A stretch of DNA of 64,000 nt. Source: an uncultured bacterium. GTDB lineage: Bacteria; Babelota; Babeliae; Babelales; Vermiphilaceae. The first letter of the stretch is position 1. The number at the start of each line of letters is the position of its first letter. The DNA lies in NCBI GenBank assembly GCA_963702025.1, contig OY969699.1:1472001-1536000 (forward strand), written 5' to 3'. The position numbers were made by a program, and so were the translations under genes. Below, one piece after another: positions 31,292-51,352 of the stretch. The notes beneath the pieces were generated by a model, which saw only the letters and a program-made list of their open reading frames with translations, did no database searches and was not told the DNA's origin.

Positions 31292-32335
31292 ATGAAAAAA
31301 ATAACGATAAGACAGTTAGTTGTTCTGATTATTACTTTTTTTATCTGCTGCGGCGATTCTCCTATTGATCAGGTACCCACACAAAATTACACCGATAGAA
31401 TTCTTCCCGAGAGAGTCAATAATAATTTATTCTTCAACACACAATTTTTAGGCCAATATGAGCAGGTTGCCAATACATTAATTTCGCAAAAAGGCTTTCA
31501 AGAAGTCTATTTTCTTTCTTCTGACAACGTCTGTTTAAACGGCTTATGGCGCCAGAGCACCGATTCTCCTTATACCATTATATTTTGCGCAGGCTTTTAT
31601 CCGGGCCGCAAAGAGGGATTAGCTTCATTTGTAGAAATTGCTCCACCCGATTGCAATATATTATTCTTCGACGCACGGGGGCACGGAAAAAGCAACGGAA
31701 GATTTTTTAGCAATATTCACAACTACGGCATTGATGAATATAAGGATATTATCGGCGCCGTTGAGTTTGTAAAAAAAGAAACAAATGGGCCGATATTTAT
31801 TCACGGCATTTGTGCCGGTGCATTTAACGCGGCACATGCACTCGCGCAAATAAGTGCGCAAGAATATCGGGTTAAGGGATTAATTTTTGATAGCGGAATA
31901 ATTTCAATCCCTGAAGCATGCCATGTACCCGAGAAATATTTTTGCCAAAAAATAATTCCCACAATGCTCATGAATTTTTTTCCAAAAGATACTAAGGAAA
32001 CTATAAAAGAACGATTCCTCTATAAAGTGCTGGCATTTACCACTGGCACTCTCATGAACCTTGCCACTATTTTAATTAAACCATTGCTCCAATCAAATGA
32101 ATCACAAACAAAACTCACTGCGGATCATTTGAATAAAATTCAATGCCCTATTTTCTTTATTCACTCAAACGATGATTCATATTGCCCATTACAAAACATC
32201 CAAGATCTAACGGAAAAAGTACCGTGCAAAACATGTTGGTGGATCAATCAATCAGAGCATGCGCTTAATCATATTAAACATAAAAATGAGTATCAAAAAC
32301 AGCTGAATATGTTTTTATCGAGTATGCTTGTTTAG
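31292..32335 (+). CDS. Exported alpha/beta hydrolase with Cys at the nucleophile elbow
   Basis: FDARGHGKS, HGICAGA, HSNDDS, EHA motifs. Confidence 0.8.
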   Translation: MKKITIRQLVVLIITFFICCGDSPIDQVPTQNYTDRILPERVNNNLFFNTQFLGQYEQVANTLISQKGFQEVYFLSSDNVCLNGLWRQSTDSPYTIIFCAGFYPGRKEGLASFVEIAPPDCNILFFDARGHGKSNGRFFSNIHNYGIDEYKDIIGAVEFVKKETNGPIFIHGICAGAFNAAHALAQISAQEYRVKGLIFDSGIISIPEACHVPEKYFCQKIIPTMLMNFFPKDTKETIKERFLYKVLAFTTGTLMNLATILIKPLLQSNESQTKLTADHLNKIQCPIFFIHSNDDSYCPLQNIQDLTEKVPCKTCWWINQSEHALNHIKHKNEYQKQLNMFLSSMLV

Positions 32336-33144
32336 TACAAATACTCATAGGCAAATATAATAGCTTTTTGCGTAGTGCCATTATTTTGATATTTGACCGT
32401 AACCGGAACATTTGCCGGAATCGAAGAAGCTCCTAATGAGGACTGTCCCAAAATATATGTTTGTGGTGGACCAAATTCAAAGTTAGATATCGGTCGGACG
32501 GTGAGACCTACAACCGTTGGCGTTGCTACCGCATAATTATTGGGCGATGCTACTTCCATTGTCACTGTATTATTAATCGTATCTATAGCAATTATCCTAC
32601 CCAGATCATCAGTATTGGTGCCATCACTTAATATAATACAATAACCAACCATACTATTTGTTATCACCGAAGGAGAAACATTAATTATGGTGTCGCCAAC
32701 ATTAACATCGTGCGTGATGGTACCAATGGGTAGATTTGATGGAATTTCAACAGTAACCTTGTCACCTTGATTAGTACTATCTGTGGTGAAGCTTGCTTGA
32801 AGTAATGAAACATTGAAGGGCCAGGACATTTGAGCTGTAGTCATCCCGGGTCCAGTAGCAGTCAGAGTAAACGTTTCAGCTCTAAAATTACCACCGGTAG
32901 GCACTGATTCTTGTTGAATTTTTACTTCATTACTCGCTATCTGATCCACTATTGATATGCTATTGGGGTTAATCACATGCGCGGTGTTATTTGGGCAAGT
33001 GGTTGGCGCAACGGTGTTCCATTCATACACGTTTTGAGCTTCAGTGATACAATAAATACGGTATTGATACACAACGCTCGGCGTGTCAGCAAAGCCTACA
33101 CTGATACCCAAAATAAATAACAATCCTATTTCTTTAAACTTCAT
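32332..33144 (-). CDS. Secreted beta-rich hypothetical protein, last gene of the fibre cluster
   Basis: Signal peptide; Thr/Asn/Val-rich; YRIYC..E....W...PTTCPNN.AH motif. Confidence 0.7.
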   Translation of the reverse strand: MKFKEIGLLFILGISVGFADTPSVVYQYRIYCITEAQNVYEWNTVAPTTCPNNTAHVINPNSISIVDQIASNEVKIQQESVPTGGNFRAETFTLTATGPGMTTAQMSWPFNVSLLQASFTTDSTNQGDKVTVEIPSNLPIGTITHDVNVGDTIINVSPSVITNSMVGYCIILSDGTNTDDLGRIIAIDTINNTVTMEVASPNNYAVATPTVVGLTVRPISNFEFGPPQTYILGQSSLGASSIPANVPVTVKYQNNGTTQKAIIFAYEYLY

Positions 33145-33154
33145 TGTAATCCCT

Positions 33155-49200: not shown

Positions 49201-50575
49201 TTGCCCCGGTAGGCCCAGAGCAGCAAGGCCCTGTTGCTCCCGTCGGTCCGGTTATCCCCGAGCCGCCGCCTCCTTGTCCGGGACAAAACGCAACTGGCAC
49301 TGGAACTCCCATTGGATTATTTACAAAGCCATTGGTACCAAAAGTGCCGTCAGCGGTACCGCTTGGCGTTACCTGGAACAATAAATAATCATTATCAATA
49401 AAGCCGGCCGCCAGTAACGCATCATTTTGCTGAATAACAATTGCATTACCCTCAGAACTTGACCCGGGACATGCAAGAGTTGCAATACCATTACTGCCAA
49501 ATGGCAAATCAAGGTCCCCCGAAGGGAGATACCGTGCAATATAAATTTGTGAATCAAAAACGCCGGTTATTGCAATTTTCTGATCTGCCGGCTGAACTAA
49601 TACGCCTAAGGCAATTGCGTAGCTGCCGATTGGTGTTGTTACAATACCCCCGGTGCCAAATGTTGCATCCGGAGTACCCGATGGCGTATAACGAACAAGT
49701 GCAATCGCATTAGAAGATAAGCCTGCCGCTACTATATTGCCATCGGCCTGAATCGCAACAGCACACGCTACATCATTGGTACCGATCGGCGTAACTACCG
49801 TCCCGCCAACACCAAATGATGCATCAAGAACACCAGCCGTGGTGTAACGTGCAAGTGCAAATTGATCATCTGCTGTTCCTGCAACTACAATGTTACCATT
49901 TGCTTGTAATGCAACGGCATAAATTGTTGAACTGCTCCCCACCAAATTGGTAACAAAACCACTGCCACCGGTGCCAAATGAAGTATCTATGGTACCATTT
50001 GCATTATAGCGCCCAACTGCAAAAAAAGTTCTTCCACCGATGATCGCGCTACCGGCTACAACAATTTTCTGATCGGCTGGCTGGATCGCTAGGGCAGCAA
50101 TACTCGAACCGCTACTGGCGGGCACCTGTGTAGTGACTATGCCACCATTAAATAACGGATCAACAGTCCCTGAGGAATTGTATCGCACCAGTGCAAACTG
50201 ATTTACTCCGCCCACTGTTGCAAACCCTGCCGCCACAATTTTTTGCAAATTTCCCGCCAACGTTTGGATCCCAACCGCATTTGCTACCGCGTTCGTTCCT
50301 ATCGGCGTTGTAGTTATACCGGGTGCATAGGTACCAAAACTCCCGTCCAACGTTCCATTCGATAAATAGCGGCACACTATAAATTGATTAGCATTTCCCA
50401 TCGTGGTAAAACCAGCTGCAACCGGCCGCGAATCGGTTGGTGAAAATGTTTGCAATGTTAATGCATTTGCTGCATCTTTGGTCCCCACAACTATTGCCAA
50501 TGTTGCTTGAGAAAAGAAACAACCGATTATAAATAAAAATAATCTTAAACTTTTTGTGAAATGCTTCATTCTCAA
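46229..50575 (-). CDS. Giant delta-60 / collagen-like / BclA-C1q-like fibre protein (1448 aa)
   Basis: Signal peptide, delta-60 repeats, about 850 aa of G-X-T triplets, C-terminal domain ending VITRIA. Confidence 0.9.
46705..49260 (-). repeat. 9/18-bp coding tandem repeat (GST/GQT triplets) with higher-order block duplications
   Basis: e.g. ~46759-46867 recurs at ~47083-47190; ~47240-47470 recurs at ~47650-47880. Confidence 0.9.
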
Positions 50576-50578
50576 TCC

Positions 50579-51352
50579 TTAGGAAACACGTGTTATGGTG
50601 AGAGTAATACTCGGTTGCACACCATTGATTGGTGTCATAATACTGCTATTGCCACTATTTGCCTCTAATTGCACAAAATCTGTCCCACCGGTAAATTGCA
50701 GTTTAAGCACATCGTTCTCATTAATCGATGCAATAAAAGAACGCGTTAGCGATAATGGTTTATTATTTGTTGGTTGTTGAATTGTTCCTTGGCTGCCGGG
50801 TATCTCAACACCATTAAGCACCGCAATTATACTAACGTTTGATAGCTGGGAGTTGGTGATGCGGCAAATCGCATCATATTCAATTAAATAATTGCCCGTC
50901 TGCGCACAAAAAAACTCTGCCGACGGCGGTAAAATTACCCATCCATTGATGATCGGCGCATCGGTGAATATTATATCCTGAAACGTTGGTGCAGAAACGC
51001 CAATAGTTTGAGTTATTGCTCGGTAAGCAAAAACATAATTAGCCCCGATCGCCCCACTGTTATAGATGGTGCCGCACACTACAAGGTTTCCTTGAACCTG
51101 TAAATTCTGTCCAATACATGCATTATTTGATACTTGCAAACTACAAAACTGTGAGCCCGTTAATGAGCAGCCGGAAGCACAGGCGCAGGTGATACACGAA
51201 CGAATATGCGCTAAATAATCTTGCGAAAGACCGCTATTTTCATCCAGAAATGATATAGGTCCCTTTTTTTCTTGCGCATTGATATCGAATGATTCTAATA
51301 ATATGAGCAAGAAAAAAAGATAGTTTTGTTTTATAGAATAAATGTACCTCAT
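50579..51352 (-). CDS. Secreted BclA/C1q-like domain protein with Cys-rich neck, first gene of the fibre cluster
   Basis: C-terminal domain matches those of 37028 and 46229 (NYVFAY, C.QTG.Y, LNG.EIPGSQ, TITRVS). Confidence 0.75.
   Translation of the reverse strand: MRYIYSIKQNYLFFLLILLESFDINAQEKKGPISFLDENSGLSQDYLAHIRSCITCACASGCSLTGSQFCSLQVSNNACIGQNLQVQGNLVVCGTIYNSGAIGANYVFAYRAITQTIGVSAPTFQDIIFTDAPIINGWVILPPSAEFFCAQTGNYLIEYDAICRITNSQLSNVSIIAVLNGVEIPGSQGTIQQPTNNKPLSLTRSFIASINENDVLKLQFTGGTDFVQLEANSGNSSIMTPINGVQPSITLTITRVS

Follow-up and report, generated by a model that had tools for sequence, protein, structure and literature searches.

Which structures would a bacterial parasite of protists build from closely packed genes that join signal-like starts to propeller repeats, phage-fibre stalks and collagen? 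The question is raised by positions 32332-51352 of a 64,000-nucleotide stretch (the window) of an uncultured bacterium of the Babelota, family Vermiphilaceae (assembly GCA_963702025.1, contig OY969699.1, positions 1,472,001 to 1,536,000). Nine open reading frames (ORFs), all on the minus strand, fill this span exactly; in reading order they encode 257, 1448, 701, 703, 857, 704, 691, 557 and 270 amino acids (aa). Intergenic gaps are 3-152 bp when measured from the first in-frame start codon, the likely start lying further in for some genes. On balance, the array is best read as encoding exported trimeric adhesive fibres, probably glycosylated, with their propellers inward and tips outward. This reading is probable as a whole, while its core, namely that the products are trimeric exported fibres, is very likely. 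The nine genes are as follows.

50579..51352, minus strand: 257-aa gene; signal-like start, Cys-rich segment and BclA_C/C1q-like domain, with neither propeller nor collagen
46229..50575, minus strand: 1448-aa gene; delta-60 propeller, GPCC motif, 283 Gly-X-Thr triplets and C1q/BclA_C-like tip
44077..46182, minus strand: 701-aa gene; propeller, phage-fibre stalk and NY.A.G tip
41943..44054, minus strand: 703-aa gene; propeller, phage-fibre stalk (residues 422-605) and NY.A.G tip
39295..41868, minus strand: 857-aa gene; propeller and right-handed beta-helix tail (tailspike/pectin-lyase fold)
37028..39142, minus strand: 704-aa gene; propeller, 37 collagen triplets and C1q/BclA_C-like tip
34887..36962, minus strand: 691-aa gene; propeller, phage-fibre stalk and NY.A.G tip
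33155..34828, minus strand: 557-aa gene; propeller and DQK tip common to phage tail fibres and giant-virus collagen
32332..33144, minus strand: 270-aa gene; giant-virus-type protein with an added signal-like start and no propeller

All nine proteins begin with a basic N-terminus and a hydrophobic stretch (best 11-residue Kyte-Doolittle mean 2.3-2.9), as judged by a simple hydrophobicity heuristic and not by SignalP. An earlier description of the window from its letters (the sequence-only reading) had reported nine co-directional genes with such starts, and its coordinates were exact. It had also seen no autotransporter barrel or C-terminal transmembrane anchor, with which Pfam and hydrophobicity analysis agree: the nine proteins contain no autotransporter, YadA-anchor or S74 (PF13884) family at E 0.1 and no C-terminal 19-residue stretch above 1.55, and seven tails gave no YadA-type anchor family at E 5. 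A lipoprotein anchor was rejected, as a lipobox-like word occurs in only one of ten proteins. Short-read contigs from four soil runs, which belong to one study and possibly represent the source sample, match positions 31300-46600 at at least 99% identity in 79 of 92 pieces, with no indel listed.

Seven of the proteins open with seven TIGR02608 delta-60 stretches each (222-298 bits, cut-off 76.5), as had been described, and in these the propeller region ends at residues 410-434. A profile of the 703-aa family found NHL propellers as the nearest solved relatives (E 6e-8), which supports a beta-propeller fold for the delta-60 region. NHL propellers are binding domains. The seven propellers of the array share 36-46% identity. 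In 19 distinct same-type pairs, picked by nearest propeller, tip conservation equalled or exceeded that of the propeller in 11 and was lower in eight, all of the C1q type. A set of 29 rows gave 53% for propeller, 70% for stalk and 60% for tip, and three orthologs of the 857-aa gene gave 65-75% for propeller against 80-90% for tail, two of these three sets being tail-selected and hence biased. Many cluster members have no propeller at all, other N-terminal modules filling that position. These comparisons do not bear out the proposal of the propeller as a common, conserved dock or as the unit of a lattice. Like other delta-60 repeat proteins, those of the array have seven canonical repeats; they differ by their fusion to trimeric fibre tails. 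No described function for this family (TIGR02608/PF17164) was met in the literature found, as far as the available parts of the sources go (PMC8078820 among them), and the array gives this uncharacterised propeller its first structural context.

Elsewhere in Babelota, delta-60 propellers stand alone or precede Ig/cadherin repeats, and one such gene lies elsewhere in the source genome (G000). With 2263 aa and Ig/cadherin-like repeats, this eighth delta-60 gene stands first in another array (G000:C1:1369645-1386393), one of large secreted proteins, for which G006 and G002 show synteny. A short tail resembling 'L..AI..KY' is common at the end of propeller-only delta-60 proteins (14 of 37, against 0 of 49 long-tailed proteins and 11 of 1302 G000 ORFs), a pattern derived from the same sequences (L017-L020, L078, L079, L081, L090, L095); it is possibly a sorting or anchoring tag.

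Behind the propellers stand four types of tail, three genes having the NY.A.G type (C-termini NYVAIGS, NYLAIGV and NYIALGI), two collagen, one DQK and one a beta-helix. These types had been recognized beforehand and were confirmed, with C1q/BclA scores near or below the cut-offs. For the NY.A.G type, three copies of residues 418-703 of the 703-aa protein were predicted to form an intertwined homotrimer (interface score ipSAE 0.89, best control 0.00), so that the homotrimer folding proposed earlier as a check came out positive for this tail. This model has approximately 1200 contacts and a predicted local distance difference test score (pLDDT) of 94-95, and its runs agree in at least 95% of contacts. 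In a calibration limited to two copies, the ipSAE mark was attained by 20 of the 30 solved pairs and by one of 23 single chains; similarity to known fibre structures may raise the score. The 701-aa and 703-aa proteins are paralogs (49%).

The NY.A.G stalk has matches in 25 cyanophage records, of which the 20 listed are mostly tail-fibre or structural genes. In all it matches 863 proteins, and a propeller is present in 30 and absent from 90 of the best 120. Propeller-less homologs include proteins with S74, T7-fibre N-terminal, phage-fibre-repeat and C1q domains; in one of them (P0121) the stalk stands behind a T7 tail-fibre virion-attachment domain, which fixes the polarity of the stalk in a phage. 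Among the loci viewed (10 of 57), those titled TM6 or Babeliales have arrays of long proteins that combine this stalk with no propeller. The fibre genes at L022, L024 and L028-L047 (loci titled TM6 or Babeliales and untitled ones resembling them) reach 4436 aa and 24 stalk-motif matches, and some stand in tandem arrays. PDB sequence searches with the stalk, the 557-aa protein, the DQK tip and the 257-aa protein gave no match. The idea that the NY.A.G tip has an H-type-lectin-like fold was abandoned, with no support from Pfam or PDB.

The two collagen genes contain 283 triplets (Thr at the Y position in 265) and 37 triplets (Thr in 32), mostly GST and GQT with little Pro. In the 1448-aa protein a GPCC motif (451-452) precedes the collagen; this motif resembles the cystine knot of collagen III. 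When scaled from the ratio for F-BclA (701 residues, 196 nm; PMC12357932), the collagens would be approximately 237 nm and 31 nm long; particles of Chromulinavorax measure 350-400 nm (PMC6561590). The long collagen has internal DNA repeats with a period of up to 396 bp at 87%. In G007, a genome with a related array, another long collagen gene is broken into several reading frames within the repeat (L003:1594-4104 and L002:14010-20000), which may be an assembly error or slippage. The collagen tips are BclA_C-like in Pfam (24-29 bits, cut-off 38; E 1e-6 to 4e-5), and one of them scores 25.4 bits against C1q (cut-off 23.7). The DQK tip matches a tail-fibre family (phrog_24210, E 3e-27), is 42% identical to Sulfitobacter phage fibres, matches 90 viral stretches and gave an atlas lead to a cluster of which 16% of the members have BclA_C.

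Delta-60 repeats are present in 75 of 230 genomes of the phylum. From 40 regions fetched around top delta-60 matches (a part of all matches; one region a 100-bp stub), fibre-type loci were identified in 14 genomes of two families, the source included. Ten of the 13 others are tandem arrays; G001 has a single gene, G011 has one propeller fibre beside a collagen gene, and in G015 the propeller is a separate gene behind a collagen-C1q gene. The clusters are syntenic in related genomes, a check that had been proposed, while gene content varies in every genome. In a quick tree of 88 propellers, 41 rows with most fibre types fall in one group (Shimodaira-Hasegawa-like approximate likelihood ratio test 94, not starred) and six fibre-type rows fall outside it. 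In a careful tree of 23 rows of the genus, two DQK-tipped propellers of G007 group with the propeller that bears the beta-helix tail (support 100/99). A single clade of the five DQK propellers was rejected by the approximately unbiased (AU) test (p-AU 1.9e-5); tip groups were named from tip clusters before the trees, and the test was chosen after the 88-propeller tree was seen. The propeller of the 857-aa protein is 54-56% identical to the DQK-tipped propellers of G007 against 37-41% to that of the array's own DQK gene. These results show, at the level of sequence, that tails have been exchanged between propellers and that the array expands and contracts. Tip labels stay clustered (9 changes against 14.1 when shuffled), so swaps are occasional, and they are old, since no recent near-identical DNA was found among genes in 32300-46700 (repeat copies listed are 60-80% alike). 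The claim of secreted, modular, trimeric fibres with interchangeable tails is upheld by the trimer model (for one tail type), the propeller tree and the AU test.

The closest parallel is with the mosaic adhesive trimer (MAT) fibres of Bdellovibrio bacteriovorus (PMC10769870), also a small host-dependent bacterium. In both systems a signal peptide and no known anchor are combined with one type of N-terminal domain, a phage-fibre-like trimeric stalk and swapped tips that include TNF/C1q-like folds. MAT proteins have a conserved 130-aa beta-rich domain immediately behind the signal peptide, display their C-termini on the cell surface and bind glycans. In the array, the position behind the signal-like start holds the delta-60 propeller of approximately 400 aa, and the array further differs by its collagen stalks, its single tandem arrangement with glycosyltransferases (GTs) and a host that would be a eukaryote. 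Solved MAT fragments gave no sequence match, and the MAT capping-loop motif is absent from the array proteins in both strict and loose forms. One MAT subgroup has an S74 chaperone and the NS74 subgroup does without, as do the nine array proteins. Other uses of the MAT domain (Supplementary Tables 3-4, PMC10769870) may bear on novelty. With BclA and F-BclA of Bacillus spores, the array shares Gly-X-Thr collagen, a BclA_C/C1q-like cap and a length set by triplet number (PMC10470788, PMC12357932). The collagen-free, C1q-like BxpB (ExsF) with its N-terminal Cys is laid out like the cluster-heading 257-aa protein, by analogy only (PMC10470788). BclA, however, carries a 38-residue exosporium leader that binds BxpB in an endospore former, where the array has a Sec signal and propeller in a Gram-negative, non-sporulating cell; unlike BclA, the array also mixes in non-collagen tails. 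BclA is glycosylated on its collagen and tip, to which the array offers a parallel in its GT neighbourhood. No ExsY/CotY-like scaffold was identified, no search having been aimed at one. Trimeric autotransporter adhesins have a C-terminal YadA-type barrel anchor, which was not found here. The array works like MAT fibres and BclA but is neither, failing their N-terminal features; the design principle is already known from these two, which limits the surprise. A literature search covering few subscription papers gave no report of delta-60 fibres or of Babelota collagen or fibre genes.

The genome consists of one contig (1.596 Mb, 39% GC, 95% complete) and encodes one Omp85, two secretins and ADP/ATP translocases at three places; no match to LpxC was found in it. 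A locus titled TM6 (L036) carries four full-length orthologs (40-69%), against no more than one apiece at the 26 loci L052-L077, which are mostly of other phyla; the genome is accordingly assigned to Babeliales. All TM6 genomes have been described to hold two gspD copies, and Babeliales to have lost genes for lipopolysaccharide (LPS) (PMC4776705). In this setting the array would supply a protist parasite with a repertoire of Sec-exported homotrimeric surface fibres. Each chain comprises a signal-like start, a seven-repeat propeller and a tail predicted to trimerise: an intertwined phage-fibre stalk, a Gly-X-Thr collagen with a C1q-type cap, a short C1q-like tip or a beta-helix tip. Trimerisation would take place in the periplasm, starting from the C-terminal domain, and the trimers may leave through one of the two secretins. 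Display on the cell surface is likely. By analogy with phage fibres, MAT and BclA, the trimers would be retained on an LPS-free outer surface, standing on a tripod of three propellers at the cell and pointing their tip away from it, a polarity that is fairly probable. Ranging from a few nm to approximately 240 nm in length, such fibres would help the cell to adhere to phagotrophic protists and to be taken up by them, and they are good candidates for host attachment. For Babelota, 'the true host range ... remains to be defined' (PMC12172432); the array bears on the way they attach to protists and on what limits that range, and it names a small set of soluble, expressible tips for protist and glycan-array tests.

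Several points weigh against this interpretation. Surface display and polarity are deduced from the genes, and neither a barrel nor a transmembrane tail was found in the array proteins that could serve as anchor. Signal peptides occur in 44% of the coding sequences of Chromulinavorax (PMC6561590), and the signal therefore says little on location. A fixed dock would not predict propellers that are no more conserved than tips. The trimer prediction covers a single tail type, that of the 703-aa protein, and the beta-helix tail also fits monomeric lyases. Arrays are patchy, with matches to a C1q-like tip query in 20 of 230 genomes. As regards glycosylation, no GT was seen at 8 of the 14 fibre loci (four of these without upstream flank), and GTs are common in the genome, with six GT17 genes in one place.

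The propeller comparisons bear on a reversed or double-ended polarity, in which the three propellers would be ligand-binding heads forming a trivalent, lectin-like bouquet, or both ends would bind. The C-terminal trimer domain would then nucleate folding and bind the bacterium's own surface glycan, and a double-ended fibre would cross-link cell and host. That propellers drift at least as fast as tips favours this arrangement, as do the kinship with NHL propellers and the delta-60 propellers that stand alone or before Ig/cadherin repeats. The most conserved propeller columns, moreover, are the generic G.LD..FG loop of all delta-60 repeats. All tips are nevertheless of kinds that are distal in phage fibres, MAT (PMC10769870; C-termini outside) and BclA (PMC10470788), propeller-less members carry other N-terminal modules in the same position, and the bias of the tail-selected sets reduces the force of the conservation argument. 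Reversed polarity is considered unlikely.

A further proposal, bolder and considered unlikely, is that the infectious particles wear a coat of glycosylated fibrils in the style of giant viruses, which the array would build from a kit shared in part with giant viruses infecting the same protists. The 257-aa and 270-aa proteins would form a disulfide-linked base layer replacing LPS on which propeller tripods dock, with the intergenic stem-loops setting ratios and the adjacent, exported-looking GTs decorating the fibres. Mimivirus adheres by glycosylated fibrils before uptake by phagocytosis (PMC9614988). The 257-aa protein has seven Cys in residues 53-93 ahead of its C1q-like domain (BclA_C 37.6 bits, cut-off 38; G007 homolog 44.1 bits) and no phmmer match below E 0.5 in PDB. 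The N-terminal module of propeller-less members often has R-[GST]-C and then LC[VI]..N..V.G...VCG after a variable leader (drawn from 50579-51352, 53458-54834, L082, L084, L008 and L014); its sequence suggests either a site of processing or the start of a Cys-linked trimer. In its model (pLDDT 88.5), the 270-aa protein is a jelly-roll into which a beta domain is inserted, and its N-terminus forms a Cys/His module. Its matches to proteins of Klosneuvirus KNV1, Hokovirus HKV1 and Pithovirus LCPAC403, themselves uncharacterised, cover most of its length (E 1e-25 to 2e-20; template-modelling (TM) score 0.65-0.73), and only partial folds were found in PDB (Z 11.5 for the 80-residue insert, Z 9.3 for the jelly-roll). 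Its family comprises 2410 clusters, ten of which gave no useful names, and no phage record matched. A signal-like prefix is present in 5 of the 150 best family members against 32 of 50 closer homologs; the giant-virus homologs are uncharacterised and mostly without signal peptide. The array's protein was detected in 2 of 41 genomes searched.

On giant-virus contig L170 (one of six viral loci found, four of which were read), a 270-aa homolog (25%) adjoins a collagen ending in a DQK tip (43%, E 2e-29); the contig also encodes a D5-type primase-helicase and has two collagen genes. In the array, G007 and L099 the DQK gene directly precedes the 270-aa gene. Parasite and giant viruses share two neighbouring parts of a fibre kit, and the analogy with giant viruses therefore rests on homology; likewise, the phage-fibre and giant-virus likeness noted from the letters proved to be real homology for the stalk, the DQK tip and the 270-aa protein. 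The four viral loci that were read showed no delta-60 propeller, no match to the fibril proteins of Mimivirus itself was obtained, and a search for viral loci with single-protein patterns for the 270-aa family returned none. If this coat were real, the phylum would have its first defined apparatus for host attachment, and a function would be found both for the delta-60 family and for an uncharacterised giant-virus family.

The tail of the 857-aa protein brings in another alternative, namely that the trimers are shed, or leave in outer-membrane vesicles, to serve as matrix glue or to act within the food vacuole. The beta-helix would then be an enzyme that degrades glycans. This tail was modelled as a right-handed beta-helix (pLDDT 81), the fold of phage tailspike depolymerases. 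Its best folds, tied, are an alginate lyase (Z 14.3, root-mean-square deviation 3.2, 228 aligned) and a phage fibre (Z 13.9); Foldseek hits are weak (TM 0.2-0.27). Its homologs without propeller are proteins of 485-1290 aa, no phage record matched and all atlas leads were below 0.9. A monomeric enzyme had been named as the outcome that would undo the fibre interpretation: the 703-aa tail models as a trimer, and for the beta-helix tail the objection stands. Release would also suit the lack of a detected anchor, the vesicle release reported within the food vacuole for Chromulinavorax (PMC6561590) and the deposition of MAT proteins in a vesicle as well (PMC10769870). The 237-nm collagen stalk and the variation in length best suit display at a distance, and shedding and display are not mutually exclusive; as a rival to surface display, release is improbable. 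A prophage or contractile-injection-system remnant can be set aside as highly improbable: stalks and tips do match phage tail fibres, but signal-like starts are present throughout the array, inspection of its flanks showed prfB, a hydrolase, a GT2 and an AAA ATPase, third-position GC (0.27-0.39) is ordinary for the genome (0.35, standard deviation 0.05), prfB adjoins the array in three of the genus's genomes (G000, G002, G003) and no baseplate, sheath or tube genes occur among 61 neighbours scanned.

For the surface fibres, glycosylation is slightly favoured. The neighbouring GTs would probably glycosylate the Thr-rich stalks or build a surface glycan under the fibres. Of the 14 fibre-type genomes, 6 have a GT no more than three genes away from the array; among control delta-60 loci this holds for 1 of 22 (Fisher p 0.008, kin not independent). 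Neighbours of at least 150 aa were scanned, up to four per side for fibre loci and three for controls, and none of the six positives lies beyond the third gene. Two L008 genes were included manually, a prfB fragment was removed, and the controls leave out L006, L085, L092 and L096. In G015 the GT adjoins a flippase-like gene, so some flanking GTs may build polysaccharide instead. The array extends to a divergent GT2 gene, whose ortholog (59%) has the same divergent position in G007, and to a tenth family member, whose G007 homolog (40%) sits within the array there.

51585..53123, plus strand: 512-aa GT2 glycosyltransferase gene, divergent from the array
53458..54834, minus strand: 458-aa propeller-less family member with a short Cys-bearing N-terminal module like that of the 257-aa protein

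A second fibre-plus-GT locus was observed at L254:395-10327 (G000:C1:493394-503326), where the genome's only S74-capped fibre gene (1090 aa) is two genes from the six tandem GT17 genes, which have signal-like starts. Secreted lactonase-type propeller genes with a C-terminal beta domain lie directly after the array in G007 (L002:1320-5651) and elsewhere in G000 (G000:C1:27889-35129).

Three gaps of the array hold strong stems, one of them with a coding-strand U-tract.

39220..39235, minus strand: terminator-like stem and U-tract in the largest gap, after the 857-aa gene; consensus match only
41879..41910 (approximate), minus strand: intergenic stem-loop of about 13 bp without U-tract, within gap 41869-41942 (fold of the whole gap -27.7 kcal/mol); missing from the terminator scan list
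34845..34875, no strand assigned: 12-bp GC-rich intergenic stem-loop with a U-tract only on the plus strand

The array had been called a 19-kb operon, and the stem and U-tract after the 857-aa gene tell against one transcript throughout; on the sequence, a single transcript remains a possible arrangement. The window has 44 promoter-like matches (46.1 in shuffles) and 20 terminator-like ones (19.2 in shuffles), no excess in either case. Two strong hairpin structures (-120 kcal/mol) lie in the gap after the GT2 gene (53124-53457), and a complete rRNA operon with two tRNAs in its spacer is located on the minus strand at 22123-28155.

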